From positions 14,136,001 to 14,200,000 of the forward strand of contig CM114271.1 in NCBI GenBank assembly GCA_050084515.1: a DNA stretch of 64,000 nucleotides. The letters are read 5' to 3'. Each line of letters starts with the position of its first letter. Positions within the stretch are counted from its first letter, which is position 1. The stretch comes from Blasia pusilla. Lineage: Eukaryota. The notes below the pieces were generated by a model. That model was given only the letters and a program-made list of their open reading frames with translations. It was not told the DNA's origin and ran no database searches. The position numbers and the translations under genes were made by a program. Of the stretch, positions 18,642 to 57,722 are shown in pieces.

Positions 18642-18655
18642 ACATGAGAAAGATG
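18642..18655 (+). promoter_or_regulatory. Putative self-priming primer-binding site (copy 2)
   Basis: ACATGAGAAAGATG immediately 3' of A1 is the exact reverse complement of CATCTTTCTCATGT (18467-18480), which starts ~31 nt after the start of the TATA box. Confidence 0.75.
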
Positions 18656-23615: not shown

Positions 23616-24049
23616 ACCTAGGTATGGCTGAGCGGCATACGGATGCAAGTGTCATCCATGCCGTCACGCCCACGAAGTTGGACCATTGCCTCTGAGTGAG
23701 TGCAGACACGCATTGGTGGGGCGAGACGAGGAGAGATAGGCACCCATGGACTTCTGGGACGTCGTTCGAGCGAGAGAGTGCGAAGGCGGCTAGAGTAGCA
23801 CATGTTCATTTTTCGGATATGGAGCATGGTGTAGGAGGGAGGGGAGTGGAGTGGTCATTTATGAGGTGGCTAGGGTTGCTACATAGCAACCAAAGCCGGA
23901 GGTTGCGTCCTCTCCGAGTGAGGTCACGATGGAGACTTGGGAGCCTGTGATAGGTCTCAAGTTGATAGGAGGAGAGCGACGGCGAGTTCATAGTTTTTAC
24001 GAGAGGGCATGTCGGTTGTTTTGCCTTGATATGAGAGACTTGGATCGTT

Positions 24050-27000: not shown

Positions 27001-27220
27001 TGCGCAATTGTGCGCTATGTCATCTTCCGAACGTAGATGGGATGGTGGATCCGAGCTTGGCAGTGGTACCTACAGGCTTGAGGTGTATGTTGTGCGGATC
27101 TGCGAGGGGTGCAGCCACCATGTTGGTATGTGATGGTTGTTCTCGAGGGTGGCATATGTCATGTCTGACCCCCCTCTTGATGTGGTTCCCACCGGATGAT
27201 GGATGTGTCCGAGATGTGTA
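24050..27220 (+). pseudogene. RT-RNase H-DDE integrase-PHD of copy 2
   Basis: RMCGDYRPIN, FSTLDL..GYHQ, PFGL.NAPAEFQR, YIDD (24566-24577), FLGLANFYRR, LHTD, TDHQPL, integrase core VEHFSKW..LTDQGTEF..HPEADGLAER, PHD from 27084. Confidence 0.95.
24631..24845. other. 215-bp AT-richer insertion within the RT of copy 2, flanked by a GGAGGT direct repeat
   Basis: Copy 1 reads GAGGAGGTGTTT contiguously; copy 2 has GGAGGT at 24625-24630 and 24846-24851 around extra sequence. Confidence 0.8.
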
Positions 27221-27300
27221 TAGGGTAGTAGGTCATGTCAGAGAGATGTGATATTTTCTATCTAGAGTTGGGTGGATCCAACTGCCAGCTAGGGGGGCGT

Positions 27301-28058
27301 TTGTGTGATCTCCATGTATATGTATGAGTTGATTTTTGTACATGTGTGGATCGACCCGTGTGTGGGGAAGATCGGTGTTGTGTGGTGTAGATGTGACCAG
27401 CGATGTATGTTGTGTAGCGATATGTATGCGCATGACAGCTGTCACATCTGAGTAGCCGATAGGTCGAGATCTATCGTGGATAGGGCGTAGGAGCCAGCGG
27501 ACTATCTTGAGTGTAACTTTGTCCCACGGTGTCGGATGAGGTTGAGGATAGGTCCATTATGTCAGGAACGTCGTTTCTGACAACTTTCATGTTGAGGTCT
27601 TTTACAGTCAGGTGACTTGTTGACCAGGTCACCCGCCCCTGGTAACCTGTGCGCACAGGTTACCAAGGGAAGGGCTATTTTTAGGGGAAGAGCCTTTTGT
27701 GCTCTTCCCAACCCTATATAAGAGAGGAAGATGGCTTTCATAAGCCATCTTTCTCATGTTGGGCCGTTGGAGCACCTCCCTTGTATGTGTGTGAGCTAGG
27801 ACTAGGGTGCTAGCATCCGGATTCCTTGATAGCATAGGCTGGACGAGGCTCAATATGCCGATGTAGATTGAGGAGTGGAGTTTTAGGCCGGGTGTGCCGT
27901 TTTTACTACTCTTTATTTTTGTTGTGTGATCTCCATGTATATGTATGAGTTGATTTTTGTACATGTGTGGATCGACCCGTGTGTGGGGAAGATCGGTGTT
28001 GTGTGGTGTAGATGTGACCAGCGATGTATGTTGTGTAGCGATATGTATGCGCACAACA
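27301..28058 (+). repeat. B1-GC-A2-B2 composite 3' terminus of copy 2
   Basis: 137-bp B at 27301-27437 and 27922-28058; palindrome TGACAGCTGTCA (27433-27444) at the B1/A2 junction. Confidence 0.95.
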
Positions 28059-31000: not shown

Positions 31001-31481
31001 CTGAATTGGGGCGCTTGCAAATTAAAACTTTAAGGTTCCAACTTTCTTTTTAAACCTAGTGACTAGCGATCACCGTAAGAGCGTAAAAGGGGGGTCATTT
31101 GTTTAGTTCTAATTTCAAAGTTATTACTTTTTATAGATTTTGGATTTTTAAAAAAATTTATTGGTAAGATATTTGAGATCTATCTTATGTAGCATCACTA
31201 TAATTATTGAGTTTTATTCTCCATGCCCAAAACAATTAATTAATGCTCATAATTTTCCCTTTTTTTAATGAAATTTCAAAATTCAAATCAATATTTATAT
31301 ATTAATCTTCTCCAAATTAATTTTGTTCCATAATTATGTGTGAATATGACTTGCAAATGACCAAATCATTTGTGTTACTATTTGAGTAATTGATTTATGA
31401 CTATTTCGGTTTTCGATGTCATATTAAATGATTGGACCCATTGAGTCATACTTTAAGTCATTAATTTATCACTATTTCTGT

Positions 31482-32790
31482 TTCTTGATTCTACTATTTG
31501 TGGCGAATGTATGTGCTTGCCTTTATGGACTCATTGCGACCCCTTTGTCTTGCTCTTCATGTTGGTTCTCCCTTGAGGCCGTCCACCATTGTTGATCGTA
31601 TTGGTGCAATTTCTGTATTGCGGAGCGTTGCGAGAATGCCTTCCAATGTAATCAATTGAGCGAACGTCATTGATTCATTCACTTGCATGCTAATCTTCCA
31701 GAATCGAGGTAGAGACGTCTGTCAAGAAAATGTGATAGCTATATATATAGAATAAATATTTCAATATATAGGGGTTGAGGATGATCAATGGTAGAGGCTG
31801 AATCAACAACTATGTGTGTCATCAATGTGTCCTCTAAAGTATTTCTTGATTCTACTATTTGTGGTGAATGTATGTGCTTGCCTTTATGGACTTATTGCGA
31901 GCCCTTTGTCTTGCTCTTCATGTTGGTTCCCCCTTGAGGCCGTCCACCGTTGTAGATCGTATTGGCGCAATTTCTTTGATAGGGAGTGATGCCAGAATGC
32001 CTTCTGATCTAATGAGCTGAGTGAACTCCATTGATTCATTGGCCAACATCCTAATCTTCCAAAGTTGGGGTAGAGATGTGTGTCAAGAAAATGTGACAGT
32101 TGTATATATAGAATATATATTCAATATGTAGGGGTTGAGGATTATCAACCCACATGCATGAGTTTCTAATAGCAATTTGCTAATTCTGTCATTTTTTCAG
32201 GGCAAGTGATTGAAATGCATACACTCGATAGTGTGAGTAGTGGTTTGATATTGTTATATTGCCTAAAAGCATTGAGTTTAGTTCATATTTTTGTACTTGT
32301 GGAGTTGTTGGCTATTTTTAAATGCCTCAATGGTCGAGGCTGAATGAAGAGTTCTGTGTGTCATCAATGTGCCCTCTAAATCATTTCTTGATTCTACTAT
32401 TTATGGTGAATCTATGTGCTTGCCTTTTTGGACTCACTGCAACCCCTTTGTCTTGCTTTCTATGTTGGTTCCCCCCTTGGGACGTTCGGTATTCCAAATC
32501 ATAATGGAACAATTTATCTTTTGTCTAGCGATGCTAGAATGTTTGCCGATGGATTGCCTTCATTGAGCAGCATGTTGAAATTGGAGAATCCGGTTGAAGA
32601 CTTTTATCTAAGAATGTGACAATTATAGAAAGTTGAAGAGAATGTATAGTTAAATATCTAGGTGTTGAGACCCTCAACCCCTCTATTGCGAGGGGTTGAG
32701 ATTCATCAACCCTCGTGCATGAGTTTGTAATATAATGACTTGCTTGGTTGTCATTTATGGAGCAAAAGTTAGTGAAATGCATGTACTTAT
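31482..32790 (+). repeat. Three diverged tandem copies of a ~350-450-bp unit
   Basis: TTCTTGATTCTACTATTT(G/A)TGG..AAT.TATGTGCTTGCCTTT at ~31482, ~31843 and ~32385, each followed by GGGGTTGAG..T.ATCAA. Confidence 0.9.
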
Positions 32791-35569: not shown

Positions 35570-36232
35570 ATTAAGTCGCGTCGTTGTAAACTTGACACAA
35601 GTCTTTGAGCTCAAATCCAAAGGGACATTTCAGCTTTTCCATTTCTTAGTGCCGCCTGGTGCGTACGGATGCTTAATGAATGTCCTTTGTATACCCAAAG
35701 ACATGTTGTATCACTCTCAATATCTATTCCCACATGATTATCGTCAGCGTCAAACTCCATGTTTTTTTTTGTCTCAAACTTCACAGTCAACATTCTCGGT
35801 CTGCTTCCCCGTGTCAGAGTGTAAGCATCGAAACTCCAACCATCAGCACCTATCCACGACAGCCTGTCCAACACCATAAAGGTCATTCCATCACCTTGGG
35901 ACAGGGTAAGACTCTCCACTTGTTTTGTTCGTGATGATTATCGACTCTACGCGGAAACTGAAACTTATGCTAAAAGAGACACTCTGGTTCATGAGTGGTC
36001 TGAGCACTTGAAGAGGCTCGTTGTAAAGAGCGACTGCTACGGTATTGGAATATAAATAAGATGTCTCGTTTCTGTTGACTGGATCCGGCTTGAGCTTTAA
36101 TAAGCCTCCACTGGTAGTAGTGGCGTTTCCTTGGCATGTGAGATTCTTCGTCAATCCACACGAGAAGTCTGAGTTGATATCAATCGTCAAGGAAACTACC
36201 AGGGAAAATTCAAGGAGTGCCATTACCAGCAT
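35570..36232 (-). pseudogene. Legume (L-type) lectin domain fragment with signal peptide, frameshifted; probable LecRK ectodomain
   Basis: Hydrophobic N-terminus, QGNA, ALYNEPLQV, VSFSISFSFRV, GDGMTFMV, TVKFET..N.EFDADDNHVGIDIES, LRNGK..LWI. Frameshift near 35915; no kinase domain recognised. Confidence 0.85.
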
Positions 36233-37683
36233 GAAACCGACGCCGCCGTTTATAGTTCCAGCACCCAGTAGCTATTTTTGGACTCCTGAGCCACACATGC
36301 CAGCAATGAGATTCAAGTCGTCACTGCAAAATTCAGCAAACTTTAAGTAGAGTCCCGCTTGTGATGAGCTCTCTTTCTCTGGAGCATGAACTGAAGCAAA
36401 GTTTTAAGTCAGCGAGAGGAGTGGTTTAGTGTTACAAAAACACGTCACCAAAGACAACGTCAGCTATATCCCGTGGCGGATATCAATCGAGCAAGTCGAA
36501 TCTCTATGGTAGAGTGCGACGGGAGAAGTTCACTCGGAATAAATTTTTACGTAGATCTTCTTGTTTTTGCACATGCATTCCGATTGGATCCTTTTAGAAT
36601 TTCTCACTAAAGAACAGCAAACACTGGAAGTTTCTTGTTGCAGGATAGTTTTCTATAATCGATTACCAATATCAGAACGATTGCTTACCCAACTGTCACC
36701 TCCGGCCCTTGGATGAGTGTTCACTCATTCTTCTGTGACGAAACAATCAACTACTGGTCTGAATGACTATTGTTTAAGCCATCGGCGCAAGACACGGGGT
36801 TGTGAGTCCAACAAGTGGATCATGCTAAGGCTGTACCCATTACCCAAAAAATCATCCAACTCCTTATTCTGTCTTTCCCTTCTATCGTCCATAAACAAGT
36901 GTTTGATGTACATACACATTCCGCTGGTTTTGTCCATCAGAGTAGACACTTGCAGATCCTTAGAAAATAGGTTTGGTCCCATTTTTTTTAGCTTGCCCAG
37001 CTTTTCATTCAAATATATGCTCTTCGTTAGGTTTTGAATAATCCTCGAATCTGTCTACGCATGTACAATAGAAGTTTGGAACTTCATTGGTATCCCAAAT
37101 TATCCTTGTTCTTGTTTTTCTATCAAAGCATCCTGTAGGCTTGTGCTTGCACCCCATGCCCTACCCTACTTAATGGTGTCATGACATACTCTCAATTTTG
37201 AAATGGAGATGTTGGCTCTGCACTTTTCTTCCAATCTAAGGCTTGCTTGGCAAACTCTCTATCCCTTCACATCGACATGGCGTGCAAGTGTCTGCATTGC
37301 CCTATCCTGCCTAATCTAGTGACCTTTCAATCTGGACAAGACACCGCCCACTATTTGAGGTGGTGATCTAGTTTTAACTAGTATATACTAAAGAACTCAT
37401 TGTGAGGCCAATACTCATGTCCAAAATTGTCAAGCAATCATTGTCATTCTTAGTTCCACTTCATCAAAGAGTTTTACTTTGTTGTATGTAAATTTCACGT
37501 GTAGTTGCAGTTGGCTTCTGAGAACTGGACAACTCTTACCTCAACCAGCAAACTTACAAATGAATGGATGAAATAAGTATTTGTTAAGTGTGAATTTCCA
37601 TTCCCAAGAAATTCATGGAAAAAAGGAAATAATTTATTTATATATAATAATGAGCTATCTTATATGGACAATAAGAAAATAAT

Positions 37684-40668: not shown

Positions 40669-41080
40669 ATGGTGGCAGCTCACACATCAGATTGGGATAG
40701 GAAATTAGCTTCAGCTGTCCATGCTTACAACACAGCTGAGAAGAGCACCACAGGGAAAAGTCCCTACTTCTTGGTGTATGGGCATAACCCTCTCTCGGTA
40801 GTAGAGTTGGAGTTGAAGACTGATCATACTCTAGAAGGGCACTTCCAACCTAAAGGTGGCATAGATAGCACGTTGGATATGATTGATGCCCTAGAGGAGG
40901 AGAGAAAGGCAGCATTAGAGAAGACCAAGGCCGTTTCAAAGCAACAAAGGAAGATGAGGTTTGATAACCGAATACTGCATGATCCAGTGAAGGAGGGGAC
41001 ATGGTGCTGATGTATGATAGTCGACCCCAAAAGTTTCCAAGAAAGCTACACATTCGACTGCTTAGGCCTTATCAGGTGAG
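40669..41080 (+). pseudogene. Gypsy integrase C-terminal remnant (unrelated family)
   Basis: DWDRKLASAVHAYNTAEKSTTGKSPYFLVYG, then KL....L.PYQV (GPY/F-like). Confidence 0.8.
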
Positions 41081-41515
41081 GAGCAGCAGGGAAGTAATGA
41101 GGAGGTGAGGAGCAGCAGGGAAGTAATGAGATCAGGTGAGGAGCTGAGGAGCAGCAGGGAAGTAATGAGATCAGGTGAGATCAGGTGAGGAGCAGCAGGG
41201 AAGTAATGAGGAGGTGAGGAGGAGCAGGGAAGTAATGAGATCAGGTGAGGAGCAGCAAGGAAGTAATGAGGAGGTGAGGAGGAGCAGGGAAGTAATGAGA
41301 TCAGGTGAGGAGCAGCAGGGAAGTAATGAGATCAGGTGAGATCAGGTGAGGAGCAGCAAGGAAGTAATGAGATCAGGTGAGATCAGGTGAGGAGCTGAGG
41401 AGCAGCAAGGAAGTAATGAGATCAGGTGAGATCAGGTGAGGAGCAGCATGGAAGTAATGAGGAGCTGAGGAGCAGCAGGGAAGTAATGAGATCAGGTGAG
41501 ATCAGGTGAGGAGCA
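41071..41515 (+). repeat. Purine-rich minisatellite, ~28-51-bp variant units
   Basis: Core (ATCAGGTGAG)n-GAGCAGCAGGGAAGTAATGAG repeated about 12 times with modular variants. Confidence 0.95.
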
Positions 41516-43089
41516 TCCAAGGGAAGCTCGAACCAGCTTGAGAAGAAGCAAGCTTGGGAAATGCTAGTTAGAACAGGTTCAGAAGTAGATGAGGTCGAAA
41601 TTTCAGGCAGTAGATGCTTAGGGGGAGGTAGATTTGTAGGAAGGTAGGAACCCAGAATGCGAGAGAAACCCAAGGAAGAAGTCTGGTAAGTGATAAGAGT
41701 TAGTGAGTGGAGAGAGAGAGAGGGTCATGCTTGAGCTCCCCTATAGGTAGAAGACCATGGGCTTAGCCTGTTAAGTCTCCTACTACCTGAACAAGAAGGG
41801 AGAACAGCGGATCAGCAAGGTAGGAGGAGAAGAAGAAGGTGATTGCACTACTTGATCAGTTAGGAGTTGGGTGTACTTTAGAGGATGCCTTGGTACATTC
41901 AACTAGTCCAAGGCAGCACATTGAAGGACCTTATGCTGCCCTGGTCATCCTTGACTGTGAATTCTAAGTAGAGTGTGCTTGTTGGGTTCCACTGGCCACT
42001 CCACTCAAAGCACTCAAGAGGAAGGAAGGAGTTTTGGTTAGTAGGGTGAGGATAGGATTGTGATACTGAAGTGGAGAGAGTTCCTCCAGCCTCTTAAGGT
42101 AAAGAGGTGGGGTTTGATGAGTTAAGGAGTACATCTTGTAGATCTTGATCTTCTGATCTGGCCCTAAGCTCTTACATGCGACCGAACTGGTGGAACTAGC
42201 AACATTTTCACCTGGGTTGTGTGCTGGCCATGTATTACCTGGTGAGACAGAAGGTATCTTCCCCATTAGAAAAAATTGGAGGTTCAACCCCAACTGGTCT
42301 ATGTCTTTCCTTTTTTTATTACATCCTGATTGGTATGATTTTCATGCAGACTAAACATTGCAATTATGGTCTTTGACACCATTAGTTCAAGACTAACTCT
42401 CAAAATGTGCAGATTCCATCCTTGTGGAGCACTTTCATGGAAATGATATTCCTCCGGGAATAGTGCGAGTGGAACTCAAGACTGTCCATCTTGCTTTTTT
42501 GGATCATAAGTTGTGGAAGCCAAATGAGCATGACTTTCCACCTCAATACACCTTGGGTGATGCTCTTGGGGCTTCAATTCTCTAACCTAAAATGAACTTG
42601 AAGAAAGTTGTACATTAGAGCATCCCTCTAGTCGTAGATATGGTTCGGTTAGTAATACTTGCTGATGTTTTGTTTCGGATACAATTTTGACAGTGTACCA
42701 ACACTAGAATTTAGTCTACATGAAGTTATCTTTGTGATATAAAATGGGCCATTTTTTTAATCATTTCTATATGCATGCCCTTGCATTTCTATCTAGCTAT
42801 GTTTCTCACTTCTTCCCAATGTTTGAGATGATATCATGTCCCTACTCACTCCTCGCCTCACTCTCTTTCAATCTGAAACTTGTTAGTAGGAGTAGAACTA
42901 GCTAATAAATAGAAAGTATTCTCTGTTAGATTTTCTTTCTTGTCTTTCTTCATTCAAGGTTGTAAGCTTGAGACAGGGAAGGGTTTTGTATATGGGGCAT
43001 CATATCCTATTTGAATGCCATACCTCAAGTATCTTCCCCTAATCTCCTGGAGATAATGAACATCAAATAATGTAAAGTTGTCATACACT

Positions 43090-43882
43090 ATAGTAAGTCA
43101 TATCAAAGAAACTGAATCATTTACAAGAGTCATATATGTCTATCTTATGTCATTTTTTTGAATCAAATTGATCAATATGACTCAGTCATATTTTATGACA
43201 TAGTCATCATGAGTCATTTCAGAAAGATCTGAATCTTCTATGTGACTCATTCATATTTTATGACTCAAGAACACAATCATTCATACAAATAAAAAAGATC
43301 AATATGACCCAAATGATCATAATGACTAACTTTTAGGTGACCTATATGACTGAATATATGACTCATGTATCACGACTCGGTCATTTTAACAAATTTTGGT
43401 AACCTCTATGACTTGGTATATGAATCAGTCATTTAAACCATCCAAGTGATTTATATGACTGAGAAGGCATCACCACCAAGTCATTTAGACCATCAGAGTG
43501 ATAGATATGACTCAGTCATAGATCATAACTAAGTCATTTTGACCAATCCAAATGATGAATATGACTAAGTCATAATTTATCATTGCCACGTGTCAACATA
43601 TAATTGTTTTCTTCGAGTCATTGCCATGTCACATGCTGACATGGCTATTGGAATATATGACTACATTCTATCATATGTTGCTTGATGATGTGTGAGTCAT
43701 TGTTAATAATGACTAGCCGAAATATTGATTAGAGTTATCCCAAAATGACTCTAGTCATGGCATGGTATATGACTAGGCTTTTATGACTCCATGAGTCATC
43801 AGTCATTGTCAATCATTTACGGACATATATGACTAACATAAGTCATATAAGCCAGTCATAAAAACCAAGATTTGTTCTAGTG
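43090..43882. repeat. CACTA right subterminal repeat array and TIR
   Basis: Same motifs as the left array, ending TAGTG. Confidence 0.85.
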
Positions 43883-43960
43883 CTACGTGTCACAAAGAGA
43901 ACCAAGTTTTGAAATGTGCAGGTCTCAACCTATGGATCCAAGACTTGCAGTGGAGGAAGG

Positions 43961-46900
43961 TGTCACATCTTAGTTTGACGTAGGTAGAGTTCTATCGCGT
44001 CAACGGCATAGAGAGTCGGCGGTTTGTTCGGGTGTAACTTCATCCCGAGATGTTCGATGAGGTTGGCGACAAGTCTGTTGTGTTGGGAACCTCGTTTATG
44101 GCGATTTCCCTATTTTGGTTTTAGCCTGAGAGGTGACTTGTTGAACGAATCAATGGCCACCCGGTAATCTGTGCATGCAGGTTACCGTTTGGAGGGCTAT
44201 TTTTGGGAGAAGAGCCTTTTGGCTCTTCCCCCAAGGGTATAAGAGTGAGGGAGATGGCTTTGTCAAGCCATCTTTCTCATGTTGAGCCTTAGGAGCGCCT
44301 CTCTTGCATAGACGTATGTGGATATGTAGGAGTTAGGGTGCTAGCGTCTGGATTCCCTCATAGTAGAGGATGGATGTGGTTCGATATGCCGATGTAGATT
44401 CATGAGTGGAGTTTTAGGCCGGATGAGCCATTTTTACTACTCTTTGATTTTGCATGAAAAAGATGCGAAGGGGTAGGGAATTTGTTGTTTGCAGGTAGGC
44501 AAGCGAGTTGCCTCGGTGGGGAGCCCTGGAGACGCGTGTGTGGCGTTTTATGTGTTGTTTTATGTTTGGAAGGTTGTGCGCGGAAGCGCTGTCCATTTTG
44601 CCTAGATTTTGCTAGTGCGGGTTCACAGGGGACAACAACAGAGTGTAGCGTGACGTATGGCATCAGATGTATGCGACCGAGTGTCTTGAGAGAAGGCGGG
44701 AAAAGACATTAGGGCTTGCAACCGTCAAGGGGTTGTCAAGTAAAGTCGGCCACAACTAGATTGTAGTTGCCTAGGCCTAGGGTTAGGTCCTATGTATAGG
44801 GCAGGAGTATAGGCGTATGAGTCACGAGTACAAGAGTACAAGTTCAAGTAGGCCAAAGACACTAACAAGGAAGAGTCGGGCGTCATAGGGTCACGTACCG
44901 CAGGGAGTTAAGGCAAGAGAGAGGCTGGACGACCGGAAGGGCGAGTGTCGCTTTAAGACGGGGTGGCAAGAATCAAGGCCGGGAATAGGGCGGCGAGCCA
45001 GACATGGTTCGGGTCGGACGTGGTTGAGTTGAGTTACGTAGTGGGAGAGCGTTGGTGACACTTAGTGTTTCGCGAGCATGGTGGGATTCAGGATGGGAGT
45101 TTGGCAGTTATTACGAGTCGATTGGGGGTCGACTCATAAGTTCCTCACCGACTGGGAATTTCCAGGGTTGTAATGGGGACACACGCGCCGACGCTGACGG
45201 GAGGTTTGACGTGTTGATTGAGGAGGGTGTCGTGTTGCGGAGGTTGTCAAATCAAATGGAGGAGTGAGTGTTGATGGTGCCATAGGTAGGAGGGCGTGAT
45301 CAAGTTACCCATTCGAGTCCTTTTCCCGCATTTATCTTATGTGATTGAGAGTGCTGGGTGTCGGATAGTTGCTGGGGCTAGATGGATGTAGCGATGGTGA
45401 CGAGTGTAGTCTCCATGCATGTGTAGCATGTTTGTGGATATACAGCGGTTGCCAAGTAGGGGTCACGTGTATGATCCGAGAGTGTTAGTGGTTTAGGTGA
45501 GCTAGTTTGGAGGCTCATGGTGAGCCTGAGTGTTGAGTGTGCGTGAGGCCAGGTGTGTCATCACGGGGTTACCATTGGCATAGATGAGCTAGTGAGGAGC
45601 ACGAGAGACTCTTGGTGAGTCTGAGTGTTTGAGCAAGTGAGACATGATGATCATCACGGCGTTCTTCCAAGGATGGGAAGAACGGGGTATTTTGAGTAGT
45701 AGTGGTGGTGTGACACGGAGTGGAGTGAGATACCGAGGGGTTACGAGTGAGGATCCGCCTCGACTTCCATCCGTGGCTGGATCGTCATCACTGGACACCG
45801 GGTCTAGTGACGAGATCGCAGACGGGGACAGTGTTACGTGGGGAGTGATGGATGACATGGGCCACCAGGGCATGCGTCATTTCTCGGATGCAGCAGGCAC
45901 AATAGATTTAGATGATTTCATCCTGGAGTTTGACACGTGGTGCAACTTCCAAGAGATACGGACTCCTACGCGGTTCAACCCTTTTATGGCATGAAAGGGG
46001 TTGTTCCAGCATTTGGAGGGTCCGTCGATGGATGATTACATGGAGTTCCGATCTCTATACTCTGTAGAGATCGATGCCTGGAGGGTGTATTGGGCTCCAG
46101 GTTATGTATTTATTAGTGGCCGCGAGGCGTATGATGGGATAGTGAGAGTGGAGAGACCTTCACCATCATCCCGAGAACTCGATGGAAAGGATGACAATGA
46201 GAGTGGTGAGGTGGCAAAAACCTCTCATGGTAGAAGACCATCGAGTTTTAGTCCTACAATGGAGTTCTTCCGACAGTTAGGGAGGAGCTATGAGGGCGTG
46301 CGGACAGACAAGCTGAAGAGTCTACATGATTTTCAACGGAGATCGGTAAGTCTGAGGGAGGCGTTCATGCGTATACGGCGGTTGATGGTTGCCACATATG
46401 AGGTGACTGAGGTGCAGTATTGGTATGGGATGCTGGATGACGAGTTATGGAGGAGAGTTTGAGATGCAATTTTACTTCACACCACGAAGCCCACATTAAA
46501 GGTGATCTTCGAGTTGTCTGGGCGGATAGAGCTCAACAGGAGTGAGGAGCAGGTGGTGACCACGAGATTTCTGCGGGATTCGACGGATTGACGAGTAGGA
46601 GTAGACCCACAAGTATCCCATCATGCACCAGGAGCACTTGAGCAGGCCGGTGGGCCCAGAGAGTAGGGCAGATATCGTGAGCCGATGAGGCAATGGCCCG
46701 TACCGACATATGTTTCCCAAGAGGGACCAAGGTTGGCTTGTTGGACGTGTGGTCAATCACATAGGCATAGGGACTGCCCACAGCATGGGAGAGGACCACG
46801 ATCGCCTTCGATTGCTCAGGAGCCACTAAGGATGGCCCCACCACAATTACAGTGTGATCATTATCACCGATATGGTCACACTAGGGATAGGTGTTATGAT

Positions 46901-49628
46901 CTTCGCCGGGAGGTATGTCTTGAGGTAGGAAGAGGACTTGGGGGCAAGAGAGTTGGTGGATATCGAGTGGTAGATGATCACGGTGGTAGAGTGCCATCAC
47001 CAATCACGGGAGATGGAGGACATGCACCTGATGCAGTGCTTCTTACGCGCATCGATCAGTTGGAGCAGAGGATTTTTCGCGACCCTCATGACCAAACGAG
47101 TGCCAAGCAGAACATCGGAACATTAGCGGGCTCACGCTAAGATGGTTTGGGCATTGGAGTAGTCTTGAAGAGGAGACAAGAGACAAGACGCAAGCAAGGC
47201 TTTGCGTTTCAGATGTTGTGGTCGCGACCGAGAAACCTGGACCAAACACGGAATGAGACTCGAAAGAAGTCGAGTCTAGAAAGTGGGTTGCCAAAAGGAA
47301 GAATCCGGATTTGGAACGCCACTAGCGTTTGAGAGTTTCCGACTGTATTTATAACCATAACTTTTAGCGTGGAGATGTGTTTGGATTAAATAAGGGTGCG
47401 TTGGAAGGCTTATGGAAAGCCAGTTCAAACGCACTAAAGATTTCTACAAAGCATAACATTCCCTTGGAGAAGGTAGACCCCTGAACATATTTGATTCTAT
47501 TCATGATATGATCACCTCCTATTATCTGCTTCAGGACTGCCATGTCCTGAAGCAGATAATAGGAGCATAAGAAGCAGCTGAGAAACAACCCGGAAACGAC
47601 TGTAAGTGGAGTCGGGTTGAGGAGCTCACACAAGGTCCGTTGAACAGTTGGGATCACTAGGCACGCAAGTGTTGTTTCAAATCCCTGGACTAACCAGGAA
47701 GTCTGTTCCAAGTCTTGAAGGACTTGCCATGTTTTGGAAACTAGGAACTAAGGAAGATTAAGCTTGATGAGACGCCGAGTTGAGGACTCGGTGGGTTGGA
47801 ACGCGGGTTGGCCCAGACCCGACTAACGAGAGTGCGTTTCTGGGTGCAGATTGGCGATGAGATTGTGACCTACTGAACGTACGCTTCCGCAACACTAAAG
47901 ATTGACGTTCAAGGAGAGTAGGGAAGCGACAGGATTGGTGCCATGATGATGATGCAACTACAGGTAGGCACAGAGTTGAGAGTAGCTAGTGTGGCGCCTG
48001 CCTCCACATCATACCACGATGCTGGTGAGGATTCTACGGGGATGGGATTTATGTGCAATGCGGCTCAGGTTGCGGCTGCTACGGTGGTGACTCGGGGTGT
48101 TGCAAGAGTAATTGAGCTATCGAGAGGTGGGGTTGAGACAGGAGGGGACCGATGGGCGGCAGGACAAGATTCCCCAATCCTTCATATTTTCGGAGGCACT
48201 ACATACACTTTTGATGGTGCCTCGATGATCGCCAGTGACCACGGGTGGGACAGTTGCGTCGACATCACAAGGAGTTGGAGAGACAACTCCTACGCCGGCT
48301 CGGGAGGAGCCTGTGTCGACCATGTTGTTGGAGGTGGCCACTAGGATGAGCCACGCTCCGTTGTTTTCCGCCATGGAGTTGGCGATGTCAGGAGTTGGAC
48401 CAGCGGAGGTGTTCCGGGTTGTCTCAACGTTATGTGAGCATGGAGAGGTGACTGCCTCTTGTTCACAGGTAGTTGAGGAGATGGTGGACTTGCCCTCGGA
48501 GCAAGAGCTCGAGACGTCCCCCATTGAATCATGACATGCGAAGGCGGTGAAGTCGGTAGACATGCCAGCTCCACCGGCCATTGACCTAACCATGATCACA
48601 CCAGGTGTGGTATTGTTGGATAACCAAGCAAGAGCGTTTCACTTGGTTAGTCCCACAGGTACGGTGTACCATCCGCATCGCATCCTACTTGATTTGGGAC
48701 CGCAGCCCTTGATGTTAGGGAAGGCGGCGTGTTTGGCGTTGGGATTACGGAAAGGCGACATCGAGCTTTGTCCCTTTCAGATACAAACCTCTATTGGGGG
48801 CATATCACCCACGTAGTTCATGACTCGACAAGAGTTGGTGGTTAGACTCCAGCCAAAGCATGAGTCAAATAGTGCGATGGTGTGCACTCGGGCGATTACG
48901 ACACCGGCAGAGTCATATGATGTGTTGGTAGGGAGTACGGTGTTATATCCCCTTGGTTTCATTCTGGATTTTTGGGAGGAGACAGTTTCTTATCAGCCAG
49001 GGTGGCCATCGGGTGATGGACGGGTGAGCAATCTACCGGTGCAGTTTACGGGAGTTAGTGATTGTCAACCGCGTGAAGATACGATGACCACGTTGGCAGC
49101 ATTCACAGGTTGTGTTCGCTGATCATGAGGGTTTGGGGAGATGAGCACACATGCGGAGGACATTCCTGTAGCGGATAGTCCCACAGAGAGACATGCCAGG
49201 GTGGGTTTCTCTTCCCATAGTGCAGGGTTGCTTTATTGTTGTTGGGGACGAGCGTTAAGATGCGTGGAGTGCAGATGAGCTAGTGAGGCAAGCATGGAGC
49301 CGTGTCTATGTTTAGAGCAGGGTACGAGAATGTTAGATCTCTTCGGAGGGATCAACATTGCGGGTTGCTGTAGTGTGCCAATGTTGCGGGGATGACGGCA
49401 CCGATGGTGCTAGATGTATGTAAGATAGGAGATCTTGTTGGGTATATATGTGTGTGCTATCTGGAGTTAGGGAGACCCAATTGCCAGCTAGGGGGGCGGT
49501 TGTGGGATCCCAGTGTATATGCGTGAGTTCTTTTGGTTATGTGTGGATCTAACCCGTAAGTTGGGGAAGATCGATGTTGTGTGGTGTGTAGATGTTACCA
49601 GCGATGTGGATTTTGTATGTGCACAACA
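43961..49628 (+). mobile_element. Gypsy-type copy 3: A-gag-PR-(DNMT motif I only)-PPT-B, internally deleted
   Basis: TGTCAC...CACAACA, 4-bp TSD AAGG (43957-43960/49629-49632). gag closely similar to copy 2, CWTCGQSHRHRDC, RILLDLGPQP, MLDLFGGINI at 49330, PPT 49490-49496, single B 49500-49628, no second A. Confidence 0.92.
47075..47931. mobile_element. Solo LTR (857 bp) of an unrelated family inserted in gag of copy 3
   Basis: 5-bp TSD GGATT (47070-47074/47932-47936); termini T(T)TCGC..CCC / GGG..GCGACA; internal TATTTATAA (~47346). Gag homology to copy 2 resumes on both sides. Confidence 0.8.
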
Positions 49629-52600
49629 AAGGGCTTAGAATCATGGAGGAGATGAACTCAGCCTCGGGTTTAGAGAAATTACCTTATATCTATTGGAGCG
49701 GAGACCTTGCTGTGGAACCAATTGTGGCTTTCAATTTTAAAGCTCAATGTGTGTATTGTAAAGAGATTATCCACTTAGCCCCTATGCATAAGAACTTGAA
49801 GACAAACCTGGAGCAGCATGTAACGAGCAAGTTCCATATGAGAGGTGTGGAACTGAGTAGAGCAAATTCTTGTGCATCTCTAAGGACAGGAAAGGCAGGC
49901 GGACCAGTAAAGCCTTATGATAGAGACACTAAGCCCAATAATGCCCTTAAGAGGTGGCTGGTGAAGTGTTCTCGGCCTGGGGGGTCTCAACATGGCGGAG
50001 GTTCTGAAGGTGAGGCTTCACATAATGAAAATCTTGTCGACTTTCCGTTATCTCAATTGTGTTGGGGTTATTGGAGAGACACTATGGAGGTCTCTGGGAT
50101 TCAGAAACAAGTAAAGCCAATTTTGCATGATCAGAAGGGAGGCAAAACATGGGAACCACATTCCAGAGGTAGGAAGAGGGTGTTCAACCCCACATCTGAG
50201 TGTTGGGTGGACATAAGGGGTTTGCTCAGACCAATTAATTGTTTGCATGTTAGTAGATTGGGAGGTGGTTTTAAGCATCTCACTTGTGATGAGTGCTTCA
50301 AGCTAACTAAAGAGGGTGATTTTAGGATGAGAGTTGACAGAGAAGACAAGACTTGGACTCGATGAGGGACAAGATCGACCTTGATGTGCATAAGATTGGA
50401 CTATCTCACAAAGCTTGAGCTGCGGTTGCAAGCTCGTACTTATGCTCGTGAGAGGAGAACATTGCTCTTGATCAATTTTGGCTTGAGAAAGAGGGTATGT
50501 GCACTCCAGACGAAGAAACATAAACTAGACTTCCTGTTAGATCGGGCACCTGATAGGAAAGATTTGCTTTCTTTCCTTCAAAACATTACAGTGGCACATA
50601 GGAGTGGATCCTTTGGAAGACGAGAAGCCCTTTGGGACTATCTCCAAGATCTAGGAAAAAATCTGAATAGGAAAGAGAAGGGGCACAGATTTTCAAAAAG
50701 AACAAAAGCCATTGCCCATGCACTTTTGCAATTTGGCGGTTGACCTGTAGCAAGATGCCTAGCGTTGAACCTTATGGGCCCAAGTTTAAGTACATTAAAA
50801 AGAGAAAGGAGAAAGTTTGTTCCCTTTCGATGCAGCATTAGATTAGAGGTGTTTAAAGAAGTGGGACGGATACTGATTGCAGTAAAGGAGAGAAATGGTA
50901 TCACTAGGGATGTCCCTGTGGTGTTTGCTGAAGACGAAACCAGGGTGAAAGGTCGTGTGAGGTATTTTCTTAATCACATGCTTTTACATTGAACTATTTG
51001 ATGTCTTGAATGGTAGAGCATACCTTGTTTTTGAAGTTGCTTTGTACTGCCTTTTGAAGAAAATCTTAGGTTTCTTTTTCTCCTTGTGGTAGGTGGGAAT
51101 CGAAGTGGGATACTCTGTTGGGTTTTTGTGGTCCGTCTGAAAACCATCAATGTAGTTTAGGCTTGGAAATTGTGGTTGGAGAGGGAGATGAGGGATATGA
51201 GAAAATCATGTCCACATTTGAGAGTAATATAATTGGTGTTTATGCTTGTGTAATTGTTGTAAGCCCTCTACAAGAAAAACTTCCCAAACTAGTTATTTAT
51301 GCCACGTGCACATGTAATGGATTTACAGTTGCTTGGGAAAGGTCTGAGTGGGAGGATATGAAAACCATGTGGGATGCATATTGTAGGGAATTGGTAGGCT
51401 CTATTATTGGGAATGCTTCTGATGGTGATGCACAAAGGCGTAAGCTTACGCTTGAAGATTATATGAGTAGAGTACTATATAGGGATCACCCTCGTAAGGG
51501 TCTGAATTGGGCAGGGTGGGGATTCACAATACATGAATAACCTAATGGGGATTATGGAGGGTTTTGTGATCAAGATCCTCCTCATTGTGGGAAGAAATTT
51601 TTGAACCCATTAGATAGAGCAAACCATCCAATTATGTTAGGTCCTTACATAGCGTCTTTAGAACAAGTACAACTGGTGTACAACCTTTATCCTAACAAGC
51701 AACATCATCTAACATTTGATGATACAAAAAGAAGGGATAGACAGAATTGGGCCTCTGCACAGAGAGTTGCCAGTAGAGGAGTGCAAGCTTGTCTTCATGA
51801 CTTGCAAACAGGTGATGATGCTCTACAGGAGAGAACTTTGGGTACAGAGATATACCTATCAATTTTTGCTAATTACATCGATGTTTTTTTCTCCCATGAT
51901 TGTGTGAAACATGATTTGTGGACTCGAATCATGCTCTGTTCAAAAATCACATCATTCCTACGACTACGGAGTTTGTGGTTGAAGTTACGTAGTGATACAT
52001 ATTCTGAAAAGAACATGATTAGTCTGCAAGCGTTTCATGATGTGAATATGTCATGTCACTATGCTATGCAACTAATTTTCCTCTTTAGAGAAAAATATCC
52101 CTTGCTTCATGTTCCTCTTCATCTAACAAGATCAGATTGTTGTGAAATCTTCTTTTCTAAAGTTGGAGGGATGGCGGATCATGAGCGGAATTATGATTTT
52201 GGAGTTCTGATGGATTCCGTCTCAGGTTTAAATAGAATTTTTGTATTAGAGTATAGTGTAGAAGGGTTGAAATTGGGAAGGGCTCACAAGAAAATGGAGC
52301 ATATTTGGCATGACTTACATCCTCTCCTTCCATGCCAATTACCAATAATTTTGGAGGATTAAAACAGTATTGCCACAGATGACCTTGTTGTGGATGCCTT
52401 GAAGCCGGGTTTGTGGGAGGCTCAAAATATTTGCATAAGATAAGAGATGAATCCACATACATCAGAGATTGATAAAAGGTGGTGGAATACACCTTGGGTG
52501 ATAGAAACCCAAATCTGGAAGAAATATGTCATTTCCATCTAGACCATGGAAATTGATCATGATGAAGAGGCGGAACCAGAAGATGACGTTACACCTCTTG

Positions 52601-55399
52601 AGGATTCAAACCTTGGGAGATCAAGATTTCCTCCACCGACTCAAGATGGAAATGGAGACGACTTGGACCTCATTGATAATGCATTGTGGAACATGAATGA
52701 TACTAGTCATACTTTACCTGGAGATGATGATATGCTAGATGATGGATTGAATGATATATATGTTGTTGGGAATGAAGTTGATAATGTTTTTGAGGAATTC
52801 ATATCTTCAGAACTTCATGGTAGGTAGGAGAGAATCAACAAAGTAACTCCTATAGTTACATTTGAGGGGAGTTAGATATAAAAGTCTAGTCTTATGAGTC
52901 TACTTGTGGAAAATCCTTCTCCTTCAAGAGATAGATTGAAGGAGAAGGTCTAGCATTTAAGGGAAGGCGAGGGAATCTATTCATTGGAATAGTTTCATGG
53001 AGAATAGAGATGATAAAAGAGAGAAGATAATTATCGATATTGGTTCTGATATTGTTGTTGTATTTGCATCATGTCCAACTGTTCTTCAACCATGTAGGTC
53101 CACTCGAGCATCATTAGCTGCTAACAAAGGAAGAGGAAAAGGAAAAGGAAAAGGGAAAACATCAAGGCCTAAAGACATTAACGAGGCATCTATTTTGAGT
53201 GGATGTGATCAAATCATTTGGATAGGAAGAGTTCAGAAAATTAGGAGGAAATATGGAGCCAAGTTTGCTCGATCTAGACGTGAAGTGGATTTGCTAAATG
53301 GACCTATCCCTCTGAATGAAGGTGGCCAATCTGTATCCCAAGTCATGTGTAATTGGTATAAGCCAGTAGGCAATAGCAAGAACAAGTTTAAATATAATGA
53401 GGTAGATACTAGATGGATTGATATTGAGATGGTAGTGAGCTTGGTGACCATGCAAGTTACATGCGGGGGTCTGGTGAAGACATGGACTTTAAATGAGAAT
53501 GATAGAAAGGTCCTTGAGAGATTTCTAGAGGAGCTACTGCATGGCTCGTCTTTCCACCAATGCACTAAACTCTTGAGGTAGATGGTTCAAAAACATGATC
53601 TTTTAGCATGGTCTCCGGTTCATGAAATAGGAAAAGACATCCATTCCTTTCCATCCAATAGTTGTTGTCTTGTAATACATGTCCTTTTGAACGTTGAACG
53701 CAACCAACACAATTCAATTGTAAGCTCCACAAATAGGGCATTGTGGGGCTTGCTATGGAATCTACTGCGATGCGATGATGGTAAATGATGGCTTGCAGGA
53801 TCACCTCATGTGACCATCTTTCTCTCTGATTCGATTTGTGGTCAATCGGTGAAAACAAGAGTTCTAATCTTTACATTGTAGCATCCGAACTTGATCATTG
53901 GGCACGAATCGAACAATCAACAGTTGACGAATTCATCACTTCAATGTTGATGCGAGCAATTTATCACTTTGAGGACCACTTCATCACTTTGAGAAGCATC
54001 TGGAGTGGAGCATCCTGATCCCGTAATCGAATTTCCGTGCGTGGTGAAACCAACGAGTGCAAATGGTGTGTGGTCCTAATCCAACTCTTTACCCTTTTAA
54101 TCCCGGGCATGTACCTACTTGTTACGGCCCCTACAAGATGTCCACTCCCAAGTGCATAGCCTGCAAGATGCAAGTTGTTATGCATGTTCTCTACCCTAGG
54201 ATATGAGTTTTTAATGGTAGGATGTTAGCATCCGTGCTAGTTTTAATTCTTTCATTAATACGCAATAGAATTGTATCCACAATGTTATTCCTAGTCCTTT
54301 TTAGCCGTCTCCCGAGTTCTCCGAGCCGTGTTACTCAAGAGTTCGATGTGTTTCTCCCTATCCTTACTGCCGTTTTCGTCCGAATTGGAATCCGAGTTAC
54401 TCGGTTATGTCCCGGTGTAGACATTACAAAACTCAAAACCCTGAAAAGGAGACGGATGGTTTCGAAGCTTCTAATCAAATTTCTGCGCAAGTCAAAACGC
54501 TGCAAGACGAATCATCAAGACTTGGGCAGTAGGTTCTCTTCGTCTTCGATAGGATTTCTGTCATTGTTGTGGATGGAGATGCCCGATTTCAGTTAGGGAG
54601 CCCAAGTAAGAAGTTCCATAAGTCCATGATTGGCACAGCTTACCTAAAGTGCCATCCGTCTTGCAAGACCAAGTGTGGGACCTTCGACTTAGGGTAGGTC
54701 CCCATGGGGTAAGTTTGAGGTCGTAGGGTCCCCCATCTCGGGGAATTTGATGGACCGAATACCAATCCCAACCCGCAAAAATCAATGCTCGGAAATTCCA
54801 CACAAAAATTCAGAAGACGATCATCGGATCGTCTTCGGGATTTTTGGGAGATATCTCTAAACCGATTTTGTAACCGGAATTGCTTGACCGCCTCCAACAG
54901 TACCCACGCGACGGACTCCACGGGACCGGGAGTGGGGTAAGGGGGTTAGGGCTTTCCGGAGTCCTACAGGCTATGAGTTGTGGTCCACTCCAGGGCAGCT
55001 GAGTCTCTCCTGCGAAACGAAACGAAGGGCTGGCGATGCACCAGCAGGAGCTGGAATTCAGAGGCCGCCATCGACCACAGACGTCAAGAGACTTTCGATC
55101 GCCACGCAAACGTGGGATCGTGTCGTGGGGCGGGTTCGTGGGAATGAGGTAGATTGCGTCCGCTAGGCGAAGCGGTGGAGTGAAGAACTGGCACTGCAGC
55201 ACTGGATCGCTTCCGTACGTTGCGGAAGGCTGATAGCGGGATGAAGTCCTGCTGCAGATGCGAAGCTTTGACAGCATTGCCAGGGTCTTCAGCTTCATCG
55301 GTGAACTCCCCGTTCTTCACAGGTGCGAGGCGGGACTCTCGCAGGATCTGGGCAGTGCTTGCGACAATTGCAAACGTTTATCCCAAAATCTGTGTCACG

Positions 55400-57722
55400 A
55401 TGGCTGGAAACGGAGTCGAAACACCTTCGCACGCGATGCCCAAGGCTATGAGCATACGCGAGATTGCAGAAGATTACATGAGTAAGGGAAGGGCGGAAAT
55501 CTCACCTAATGTCCATGTAGCCGCGGAAGAGCGCCCCACCGTAAGGTACAATGAGTACTCCTTGGATCTGCCAGTGATAGATCTCTCCCTCGCGGAGACG
55601 GACAGGTCCGCGCTTGTGAAGCAGGTGGGAGAAGCGGCTACCACATGGGGATTCTTCCAAATTGTGAACCATGGCCTCTCGGAGGAAGTTTTGGGAGAAG
55701 TGGAAGCGGAAGGCCTGAAGTTCTTCAACCTGCCGCGCGAAGAGAAGCTGAAGATCAAGCAAGGGTATACGGACAACTCCACACTGGAAAAGGCATCGAG
55801 CCTGCATTGGGCCGAGGGCTGGATGACGAGTTACTCTCCCATCTCCAACATTGAGGTGGCAATCGCCAACGTCTTCCCCGATGGCAACCCCGCACTCAGG
55901 TTTGAAATCTCTCCACTCCATGAATTCGAGCCTCCGTTTAGAGACCGCTGGCGCTGGGGCTATGGCCGACCCTGCCACATTAGGAACACGTTTCCCTTTA
56001 GGTGCGCGCAAAAATCCAATCCCTTTCACTGGCAATAAATCCTCTTCATGGGGAGCGTCCAAGAGTGAGTTAAGTGGTAAGGGATTTAAGATCCTCTCCT
56101 AGAAGACTTGTGTACCTGGGGTGGGCGCTGCCCTGTGCTCACCCCAGGGAAGTGGCGGCCCTTATCTAGGACTTGGATGATCCGTGTTCGAGAGGAAGAA
56201 CGCTTTATCTATGCTCTCTGATGAAGAACTTGGGACAAGTTCAGGCCTTCATTAAATTGCAACTGATATTCGGACGCAACATCTGAGAAATTCGCAGAAG
56301 GGTCCCTTAGGCTTCGGGCGGACTAAAAATCTAACTCGTGTCTACATAACGACTTGAGTCTCCCTCTCCATCTGGCAGGAGCTTGTTGATTTAAGAGAGG
56401 TTCCTTATCGGGCACTATGGAAAATGATGTGAATTGGGTGCTCGTGCGTGCGTCCAGGGACGCGCTCAACAGATTCGCTTCTGCTTCGGAAACCTTGAAC
56501 GAACTGATTTTGGAGGTGCTGGCGGAGAATGTGGGCCTGGATAAAGACTTCTTTTCTAAGCACTTGAACGAGAAGAGAACGACAGTCATGAGGTGGAACT
56601 TCTATCCGGCCTGCCCTTGGCCCGAGGGAACTCTCGGAGCTAAAGGCCACACGGATGGGTCTTCTCTCACGGTTCTACAGCAGGACAAAGTGGGAGGATT
56701 GCAGATTTACCGAGATGGGGCCTGGCTGGGTGTCAAGCCACTGGAAGGTGCACTGGTAGTGAATGTCGGCGACGCTATGCATGTGAGTGTTCTCCTTTCG
56801 TCTCTCACTCCCCCCACTCCCTCTTTTCTCGCGCTCTTAGACTAGCAGACAGTAAACTCAAGCACCTCATCACTTCACTAATCGTCCCCAGCCCCTCTCA
56901 TGATCTATCTGATTCTCCCGCATGATCCAATTGGGGTCTAGATGGTAACGTCATGATCGAGCTCTGTCTGCGTGGTCACGATAGCCATGATCGCCAATCG
57001 TGAATGCGCCTGTACAATTCCCGGTGGCTACCCTCCATTTGTAGATTCGGTCGTCCTCGTAGTGAACATTTGCAATAACTGGCCACCTTTTCCCAATCTC
57101 CGCTGGATAGTAGGCTCTGCTGAGTTCGAGCAGCTCGGTGACAAAAGCACCCATCGGCAATTGGAGTCTCCCCCTCGGAATTGTTGGAATTTCAAAGTGA
57201 CGAACGTTGTGATGATCGCGTCGCACTGACTCCCAATAGTCAGGTAATTCCCCCGAATGCCACAAATGTTGCAAGGAGATTCCACTCCTCCTGAGTGAGT
57301 AACGTTGTCACGCGATGAAGACCACCGACACAGAGTTAAGCGTCGTGGTTGCTTGCTCGTCTGCAGAGAAGAGGTGAGTTCTTCCATCCTCCCTGATTCG
57401 CCACAAATCTGATGAATCCGCTCCTCGTGGTGCGTGGATCCCGCAGGCGTGGAGTAATGGCATCTACAAGAGCGTGTTGCACCGAGTTGTGCTCAACAAG
57501 GACGTAGACCGTCTCTCTCTCGCCTGTTTCCTCAATGTGGACGGCAGTCTTCTCATCTCAGCACCAGACCAGCTCATCACGGAAGATCGCCCTCGCCTGT
57601 ACAGACCCTTCGAGTTTCTTGATTATGTTCATCAAGTTGTCAATTTGAGGCTTGCCCAAGCTGAAGATCCTGATTCTGTGAGCAGTGGTCATGTTCTGGA
57701 CCTGCTCAGGATCGAGAACTGA
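55400..57722 (+). CDS. 2-oxoglutarate/Fe(II)-dependent dioxygenase (plant DOXC class), exons 55400-55899, 56458-56782, 57447-57722, 366 aa
   Basis: LPVIDLS, WGFFQIVNHG, NFYPACP, HTD, QDKVGGLQI, VVNVGD, WSNGIYKSVLHRV, RLS. GT-AG introns in phase; 500+325+276=1101 nt, open to the stop. Confidence 0.95.

Follow-up and report, generated by a model that had tools for sequence, protein, structure and literature searches.

How does a member of a retrotransposon lineage that encodes an integrase come to sit in a chromosome with one copy of each of its two repeats and no terminal direct repeat, between the two copies of a perfect target site duplication (TSD)? This question is raised by an element at positions 43961-49628 of a 64,000-nucleotide stretch of the Blasia pusilla genome (contig CM114271.1, positions 14,136,001 to 14,200,000), called the window below. 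The element, copy 3, is one of three related copies in the window. Copies 1 and 2 are laid out as A-int-B-A-B, where A and B are repeats and int is the internal region, whereas copy 3 is A-int-B. Copy 3 is a long-dead, internally deleted, non-autonomous member of the Gypsy-DNMT3-PHD retrotransposon lineage. A sequence-only reading had named three routes to its form: opening of a circle with one long terminal repeat (LTR) at the B/A boundary, cutting of both LTRs of linear cDNA, and recombination between the two B repeats (B1 and B2) of an A-int-B-A-B insertion. All three fit the data. The data do not separate primary integration of the A-int-B form from a later B1 x B2 deletion; primary integration, to which we give even chances, is favoured.

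Structure of copy 3 and its relatives

Copy 3 begins TGTCACATC at 43961 and closes ...GCACAACA at 49628. Its boundaries follow independently from homology with the copy 2 termini, so that the chance of a match in four out of four nucleotides between the flanking AAGG tetranucleotides is about 1/256. Repeats in and around the element were tested for by a blastn comparison of 43761-49828 with the whole window. The A repeat occurs once: the segment 43958-44452 matches copy 2 at 18159-18950 and 27437-27921 with 74-75% identity. The B repeat is also single, with 49499-49607 matching 27921-28027 and 49403-49607 matching 27202-27406 of copy 2. Self-comparison by blastn detected no internal direct repeat in copy 3, and the only self-match is a 50-nucleotide (nt) hairpin at 47516-47565. 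Direct reading and blastn thus bear out the initial description of the element, with its TGTCAC and CACAACA ends, 4-bp TSD, single A, single B and lack of a terminal direct repeat.

The nucleotide identity between copies 3 and 2 is 74-77%. Homology to copy 2 continues to about 49385 (about 22735 in copy 2) and restarts at 49390 (27194 in copy 2), about 4.45 kb being gone. The missing part comprises most of the DNA methyltransferase (DNMT) and all of the reverse transcriptase (RT), RNase H (RH), integrase (IN) and PHD finger. The sequence-only reading had correctly noted the lack of most of DNMT and all of RT and IN, and had put the deletion at about 49365, within about 25 nt of the junction at 49386-49390. 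What is left of DNMT is its N-terminal MLDLFGGI, which we take to be motif I. The Ty3/Gypsy assignment of copy 3 is made through its nucleotide identity of 76-77% to copy 2 alone, its own RT, RH and IN being gone.

Copy 1, which belongs to another subfamily than copy 2, sits inside the RT gene of a Copia element. It splits the RVT_2 domain of that gene into profile positions 1-135 and 166-242, which confirms the start and end points of such elements. In copies 1 and 2, Pfam searches of the open stretches recovered RVT_1, RT_RNaseH_2/RT_RNaseH and rve, with a PHD finger at the C terminus. Copy 2 shows the Ty3/Gypsy Pol order of protease (PR), RT, RNase H and IN, and copy 1 shows part of it. In the read-through translation of copy 2, DNMT was recognized as PF00145 (C-5 cytosine methylase), with an E value of 3.9e-6 and a score of 27 bits where the cut-off is 22. 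All three copies are full of stop codons and frameshifts.

The two A repeats differ by 4.6% over 477 nt in copy 2 and by 1.8% over 506 nt in copy 1, and the two B repeats by 2.2% and 3.9%, respectively. The divergence of the A pair is not significantly different from that of the B pair in copy 1, copy 2 or the metagenome locus L006 described below (Fisher p of 0.17, 0.32 and 1.0, respectively). Homogenization of B1 and B2 by gene conversion, hinted at by 132 nt of 100% identity in copy 2, was considered and rejected, as the A and B pairs are alike. Two differences at the extreme end of B in copy 2 can be explained as two decay products of one CpG.

The copies also stand out in base composition. 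The window has the look of nuclear DNA of a plant, its background GC content is about 40%, and the copies appear in it as three G-rich, C-poor blocks of one kind of retroelement. The coding-strand GC skew is +0.12 to +0.33 within them (2001-12000, 18001-28000 and 44001-50000) compared to about 0 in the background.

Putative priming signals and repeat junctions

The polypurine tract (PPT) CCAGCTAGGGGGGCG stands directly before B and is the same throughout copies 1-3 and 26 metagenome loci (L001-L026), which were retrieved with a pattern built on this tract, although B itself differs between families. A putative primer-binding site (PBS) begins at the first base after A; the sequence with which it could pair lies in the same A, 28-32 nt behind the GTATA/TATA box. 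The complementarity extends over 14/14 nt in copy 2 and 13/14 in copy 1, levels that none of 300 shuffles reached, and over 12/14 in locus L021 (0/300 shuffles) and in copy 3 (4/300). Three more decayed loci have 9-10/14, which is the level of shuffled sequences. The mismatches of copy 3 are private to it: about 97% of the reads of its relatives carry A instead of G at 44452 and G instead of A at 44458, which would raise the match to 14/14. As the PBS sequences vary between families, the pairing has been kept by compensating changes on both sides. The complementary segment of copy 3, 44269-44282, is probably the start of the R region. Inspection by eye found no tRNA-type PBS (TGG...) beside A in any copy. 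There is no second PPT before the second A repeat (A2), and the final 20 nt of B are not purine-rich.

Since the PPT adjoins B and a putative self-priming PBS adjoins A, the LTR of the cDNA should, by the rules of reverse transcription, be B+A, and the linear cDNA is expected to be B-A-int-B-A. The circle and linear-cDNA routes presuppose this arrangement, so their premise has backing in the sequence. The junction of A2 with B2 consists of the exact end of A and the exact start of B, with no insertion or deletion, in 7/7 B-A-B elements (copies 1 and 2, L005, L006, L019, L020 and L026), as would be expected for a U5/U3 junction. The junction of B1 with A2 has the form ..GACA, then GC (in variants AC or GT), then TGTCA.., and is a perfect palindrome over 12 nt in copy 2 and 10 nt in L026.

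The terminal 40 nt or so of B are 85-90% conserved across families in which B is otherwise unrelated (11875-11914 and 28019-28058 in the window and 193-232 in L026), and may represent an integrase-binding end. The first 6-7 nt of A are alone common to the families.

Frequency of the two forms in a related family

The 26 loci come from short-read metagenome contigs and represent a related family, so that the census describes that family and not the window's own genome. Their membership of the lineage was established by tblastn: gag, PR, DNMT, RT, RH, IN and PHD are found in the order of copy 2 with 44-82% amino acid identity. The copy 2 segments used as queries located DNMT in L006, L014, L021, L022, L009, L002 and L008. 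Comparison of flanks reduced the loci to 16 unique insertions, the pair L002/L004 being counted as one and L016, whose downstream part is short, being left out. Ten of the unique insertions end in a single B followed by unrelated flank, five end in B-A-B, and one, L025, is aberrant.

Both ends are available for three single-B loci, L008 (TSD ACTA), L014 (TGTG) and L021 (ATTA). All seven segments are present in L014 and L021, and L008 has no RT or RH match. These three and copy 3 each have a perfect 4-bp TSD (4/4), and in each the flank is followed by A, not by A-B-A. The sole complete B-A-B locus, L006, has AACA and AATA at its two sides, which agree in 3/4 nt. A perfect 4-bp TSD is therefore found in 6/7 complete elements, with 3/4 nt in the seventh.

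The 3' form is constant within insertions. In 6/6 insertion groups that were assembled in several samples or as a diverged duplicate, the same form was found each time, and no allele retaining B-A-B beside a single-B form, a possibility raised with the sequence-only reading, turned up among these groups. L002 and L004 carry the same single-B insertion in flanks that are 94.5% identical, one being either a duplicate of the other that has since diverged or its orthologue from a related host. As both are single-B, the single-B state is older than that split.

Age was measured as the number of differences from the majority over 170 nt (the PPT region and B), D1 being taken without 21 unalignable leading columns and rescaled. 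The single-B insertions have 3-16 differences (mean 8.3, n = 10) and the B-A-B insertions 4-13 (mean 8.9, n = 5; Mann-Whitney two-sided p of 0.81). The least diverged insertion overall, L008, is single-B. Being 10 of the 16 insertions, and no more diverged than B-A-B, the single-B form is neither rare nor only old in this family. The surviving B-A-B copies have B1-B2 divergences of 1.7, 2.8, 7.0, 7.8 and 13%. Solo A-B units were absent from about 92 kb of metagenome flanks, a weak sample.

In L025, at 1166-1798 with the PPT on the plus strand, PPT-B-A is joined directly to the first 181 nt of A in inverted orientation. The turn falls exactly at the start of the PBS-like complementarity, and the right terminus, next to the flank, is the inverted start of A (...CATGACA). 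To judge from this arrangement, the locus looks like a self-priming fold-back product that was subsequently cut at the end motif.

Reads from the same species

The raw-read runs X9 and X10, of about 2,000 million letters each, and the contig runs X1 and X3 were aligned to 43500-50100 at 80% likeness. Joints leading from the end of B to the start of A occur, among the joints listed, in 37 reads of X9 and 24 of X10, which means that B-A-B units exist in the family of copy 3. Joints leading from the end of A to the start of B occur in 43 reads of X9 (54 with an ambiguous row) and 39 of X10 (50). Because these barely exceed the former among the joints listed, solo A-B units must be few, about 0.3-0.7 per B-A-B. 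The depth within B (49551-49559) is 363-393, and about 100 joints from B to A are estimated for the case that every B belonged to a B-A-B unit. The number found is a quarter to a third of this rough expectation, which sets split reads among the joints listed against contiguous depth. The joints are thus roughly what would be seen if single-B ends were no rarer than B-A-B.

In X9, 31,917 of 41,032 reads lie only partly on the stretch and 31,545 of 41,032 are less than 90% alike to it, so that the depth of a bin reflects conservation and not copy number. A census from depth, in which the ratio of A depth to leader depth pointed to about two A repeats per element, was rejected, since conservation of the segment dominates depth, and the joint counts suggest few B-A-B units. 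Among the pieces listed from X1 and X3, no contig bridges either end of copy 3.

The leader of copy 3 (44605-45046, about 450 bp) has a depth of 13-31 compared to about 400-1400 over the remaining element. It has no homology to copy 2 and is a stretch private to the subfamily. The variable places between copies, about 3170 in the X9 reads, are mainly C>T (696) and G>A (929). This excess, together with the skew, fits heavy methylation-driven decay, a family-specific bias, or both.

A possible route of integration

From the features observed here, namely the PPT, the PBS with its co-variation, the palindrome, the TSDs and the frequency of the forms, a pathway can be proposed. The PPT would prime plus-strand synthesis at the start of B, and a self-primer like that of Tf1 would start minus-strand synthesis at the end of A. 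The end sequences recognized by the integrase (TGTCA.. and ..GACA) would then abut inside the B+A LTR as the palindrome CA-GC-TG, so that inserted copies would be circular permutations of the cDNA, opened at the palindrome. If the palindrome were nicked 3' of each CA, at points 2 bp apart, the result would be recessed CA-OH ends that carry 5' overhangs of 2 nt and resemble a processed retroviral end. A single cut of the palindrome in a molecule with joined distal ends (a 2-LTR circle or an equivalent) would yield A-int-B-A-B. A cut in a 1-LTR circle or in a circular intermediate of reverse transcription, or cuts in both LTRs of linear cDNA, would yield A-int-B. Cleavage of palindromic LTR-LTR junctions by retroviral integrases is described for prototype foamy virus (PFV; PMC1180852) and human immunodeficiency virus type 1 (HIV-1; PMC1905944).

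The two products would differ in their fate. Only A-int-B-A-B would give RNA that still has both a 3' R and the U3 portion of A. RNA from A-int-B would lack the 3' R and the promoter part of A and hence should leave no progeny, B-A-B copies alone serving as masters. Copy 3 would have been a dead end from insertion onward, and would then have decayed and taken up its nested repeat; its internal deletion may have occurred before packaging or after insertion. We infer that the integrase cleaves the palindrome, that circular intermediates take part and that copy 3 was inserted in its present form. The general proposition is held tentatively, at somewhat less than even confidence: the lineage may integrate in the manner of a circular insertion sequence (IS), with an integrase that recognizes palindromic abutted ends within U3, A-int-B being the commoner product and A-int-B-A-B the replication-competent one.

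Alternative origins of copy 3

Primary origin of the A-int-B form is favoured because it is an expected by-product of the arrangement of PPT, PBS and palindrome, because the form is in the majority, shows no age trend and includes copies with a complete set of domains, and because single-B outnumbers solo A-B even though A has three to four times the length of B. Copy 3 may instead have been inserted as A-int-B-A-B and have lost A2 and one B by unequal recombination or single-strand annealing, the 4.45-kb deletion being separate and later. The chance of this is substantial, if a little short of one half. The predicted product is what is observed, down to the retained TSD and B end. The B repeats, 130-138 bp long and about 480 bp apart, are close direct repeats of the kind that delete readily, for which recombination between LTRs and the formation of solo LTRs are the established basis. 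Copy 3 is old, judging from the many X9 reads below 90% likeness, the nested insertion and the large deletion, so there has been time enough, and B-A-B is both the published canonical form and the layout of two of the three window copies. Against such a deletion stand the ten single-B insertions compared to five B-A-B without an age trend, and the B-A-B copies that last to 7-13% divergence between B1 and B2. Solo A-B, which recombination between the longer A repeats would produce, appears scarcer than single-B among the joints listed, 0/6 of the multi-sample groups contain both states at one locus, and the equal divergence of A and B pairs in copies 1, 2 and L006 gives no special sign of exchange between B repeats.

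The assembly artefact and all other readings taken together are improbable. It is very unlikely that the true locus is B-A-B and that the assembler skipped the loop formed by A2 and B2. Near-identical B1 and B2 repeats, such as those of copy 2, invite collapse of a short-read graph, and among the pieces listed no read bridges 49628 into the flank at an identity of at least 99%. Yet the same layout is found in ten independent metagenome insertions, for four of which the assemblies from 2-3 samples agreed, and B-A-B loci were correctly assembled in the same metagenome data. Most single-B loci are at least 3.5% away from the family majority, so that B1 and B2 would be too different to collapse, and the window assembly itself resolves B-A-B in copies 1 and 2. 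Little more credence is due to the idea that copy 3 belongs to a non-autonomous A...B family of its own, similar to terminal-repeat retrotransposons in miniature (TRIM) or large retrotransposon derivatives (LARD), that spreads in trans as A-int-B. The retention of A, PBS, PPT and B in the absence of RT and IN is in keeping with it, as is the leader with its depth of 13-31 compared to about 1000 elsewhere, which suggests a small and distinct close subfamily. On the evidence of the PBS and TATA box, however, A-int-B RNA would lack the 3' R and the U3 part of A, and A would not be regenerated.

Several points weigh against primary integration and the pathway proposed for it. An integrated A-int-B and a B-A-B element minus A2-B2 are identical, with the TSD and B end kept in both. 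The age test, with 10 insertions compared to 5 and 170 nt for each, has low power, and collapse of B-A-B to B in the assembly is possible for the two youngest metagenome loci. Symmetric cutting of 2-LTR circles should yield A-B-A-int-B as often as A-int-B-A-B, and 0/7 known 5' ends have this form; were half of the single-B elements A-B-A-int-B, the chance of finding 0/4 would be 0.06. The read ratios mix split reads with contiguous depth and include only the joints listed. Finally, every copy seen is decayed, even the least diverged: in none of the 26 loci does the element strand hold an open reading frame (ORF) of at least 350 amino acids.

Other features of the window

The positions of the elements, their parts and the neighboring features are given in Table 1. 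The repeat nested in copy 3 reaches a depth of about 2000, and its borders are marked by loose read ends at 47077 and 47922 (808 and 1087 reads). It is bypassed by 86 reads of X9 and 85 of X10, the joint from 47068 to 47931 being present in 77+9 X9 reads. Relatives have extra sequence at 47621/47622 and lack the hairpin-forming segment 47442-47564. A split oxygenase gene and a legume-lectin fragment are the sole signals of host genes in the window. Direct repeats form two arrays, with seven overlapping units of about 123 nt each at 41018-41570 and three units of about 280 nt each at 31481-32663; both are unrelated to the element.

Table 1. Coordinates of copies 1-3 and of other features in the window
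Feature	Position	Strand	Remarks
Copy 3, left TSD	43957..43960		AAGG
Copy 3, A repeat	43961..44451	+	Single, 491 bp, begins with TGTCAC; matched to A1 and A2 of copy 2 by blastn
Copy 3, TATA-like box	~44237		In A
Copy 3, putative self-priming PBS	44452..44465	+	Adjoins A; 12/14 nt complementary to 44269-44282
Copy 3, gag-like frame remnants	45641..46462	+	Stop-broken; homologous to copy 2 ORF 19750-20724
Nested insertion, unrelated high-copy repeat	47075-47930		856 bp; flanked by AGGATT; outside the element proper
Copy 3, protease-like region	48535..49122	+	Decayed; LLDLGPQ, in copy 2 LLDSGAQ
Copy 3, DNMT remnant	49333..49356	+	N-terminal MLDLFGGI; translation; PF00145 match in copy 2
Copy 3, internal deletion junction	49358..49392	+	~4.45 kb; best placed ~49386-49390
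Copy 3, PPT	49484..49498	+	CCAGCTAGGGGGGCG, directly before B
Copy 3, B repeat	49499..49628	+	One copy, 130 bp, ends CACAACA
Copy 3, right TSD	49629..49632		AAGG
Copy 2	18165-28058	+	A-int-B-A-B; TSD AACC; ends TGTCAC...CACAACA
Copy 2, A1	18165-18641		
Copy 2, PBS	18642-18655		
Copy 2, PPT	27285-27299		
Copy 2, B1	27300-27437		
Copy 2, GC spacer	27438-27439		
Copy 2, A2	27440-27920		
Copy 2, B2	27921-28058		
Copy 1	2186-11914	+	A-int-B-A-B; other subfamily; TSD TCTT; ends TGTCAC...GACGACA
Copia element, IN and gag-pre-integrase domains	3-1420		Interrupted by copy 1
Copia element, RVT_2 pieces	1339-2103, 11875-12513		
Legume-lectin domain fragment	35894-36271	-	
2OG-Fe(II) oxygenase gene	55184-56842	+	Split, at least 2 exons (DIOX_N, then 2OG-FeII_Oxy)

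Comparison with known systems

The family itself is known. KnitGypsy-Dnmt3 of Klebsormidium nitens (de Mendoza et al. 2018, PMC5890265) has the layout A-coding-B-A-B, described there as 'the same as that of a DIRS retrotransposon', and 'streptophytes (Gypsy-DNMT3)' are mentioned in passing in a 2026 preprint. The main text of PMC5890265 contains no PPT, PBS, circles or single-A/single-B form, and gives TSDs for another element only. KnitGypsy-Dnmt3 shares with the present elements the Gypsy-type domains and a DNMT inside Pol, which is Dnmt3-like in K. nitens, but differs in that a PHD finger follows IN here, that the host here has the appearance of a land plant or a near relative of one, and that copy 3 lacks the terminal A-B. 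Its layout is that of copies 1 and 2 and of five metagenome insertions, but not of copy 3 and the ten others. A C5 methyltransferase lies inside Pol in copy 2, as in Gypsy-DNMT3.

The literature searched contains neither the single-repeat form nor the TSDs, the putative self-priming PBS or the logic of a permuted LTR, and the one report of a Gypsy-DNMT3 family with DIRS-like repeats gives no account of how a DDE integrase produces this layout. The scheme proposed above makes single-A/single-B copies expected by-products rather than oddities. If it is true, circular or circle-like cDNA, usually deemed a dead end, would lie on the pathway of an LTR retrotransposon, and 1-LTR and 2-LTR circles would be genuine integration intermediates. 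Elements with DIRS-like split repeats and LTR elements that carry an integrase would then have a living link in this lineage. For annotation it matters that programs seeking two terminal repeats miss the single-repeat form, which is the majority in the sample examined.

The ends of the TG...CA type (TGTCAC...ACA) and the 4-bp TSDs AAGG, AACC, TCTT, ACTA, TGTG, ATTA and AACA/AATA are those of Ty3/Gypsy elements. Unlike them, however, the present elements do not have two identical terminal LTRs, the 5' end being A only and the 3' end B-A-B or B. The order A1-int-B1-A2-B2, which corresponds to a circle with two repeats that has been opened within the repeat, is shared with the Ngaro and PAT-like elements and SymbioDIRS-Dnmt3. 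Elements of this DIRS order have a tyrosine recombinase and are not known to make a TSD, whereas rve (a DDE integrase), 4-bp TSDs and TG..CA ends are found here, and no Phage_integrase match was obtained by Pfam in the scanned plus-strand ORFs of copies 1 and 2.

Abutted ends with a short spacer are also known from the circle junctions of IS3 and IS30, in which the ends lie a few bp apart on a circular intermediate and are cut by a DDE enzyme related to integrase. IS3 and IS30 are bacterial DNA transposons that do not use reverse transcription. The spacer at retroviral LTR-LTR junctions is 4 bp, compared to 2 bp here. As in the 2-LTR circles of PFV and HIV-1, described in PMC1180852 and PMC1905944, abutted integrase ends form a palindrome that could be cut internally. 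In those viruses the junction is a by-product joining two LTRs, whereas here it lies inside U3 and its cleavage would be obligatory.

According to PMC6317226, self-priming from a PBS that pairs with the start of the transcript of the same element is known for Tf1/sushi, and it has been predicted for two plant lineages, the Tcn1 chromoviruses and TAR. The present elements resemble Tf1/sushi and Tcn1 in a PBS that appears to be complementary to their own putative transcript start and not to a tRNA. Those elements, as described there, have ordinary identical LTRs and a chromodomain, whereas the elements considered here have split or permuted repeats and a PHD finger.

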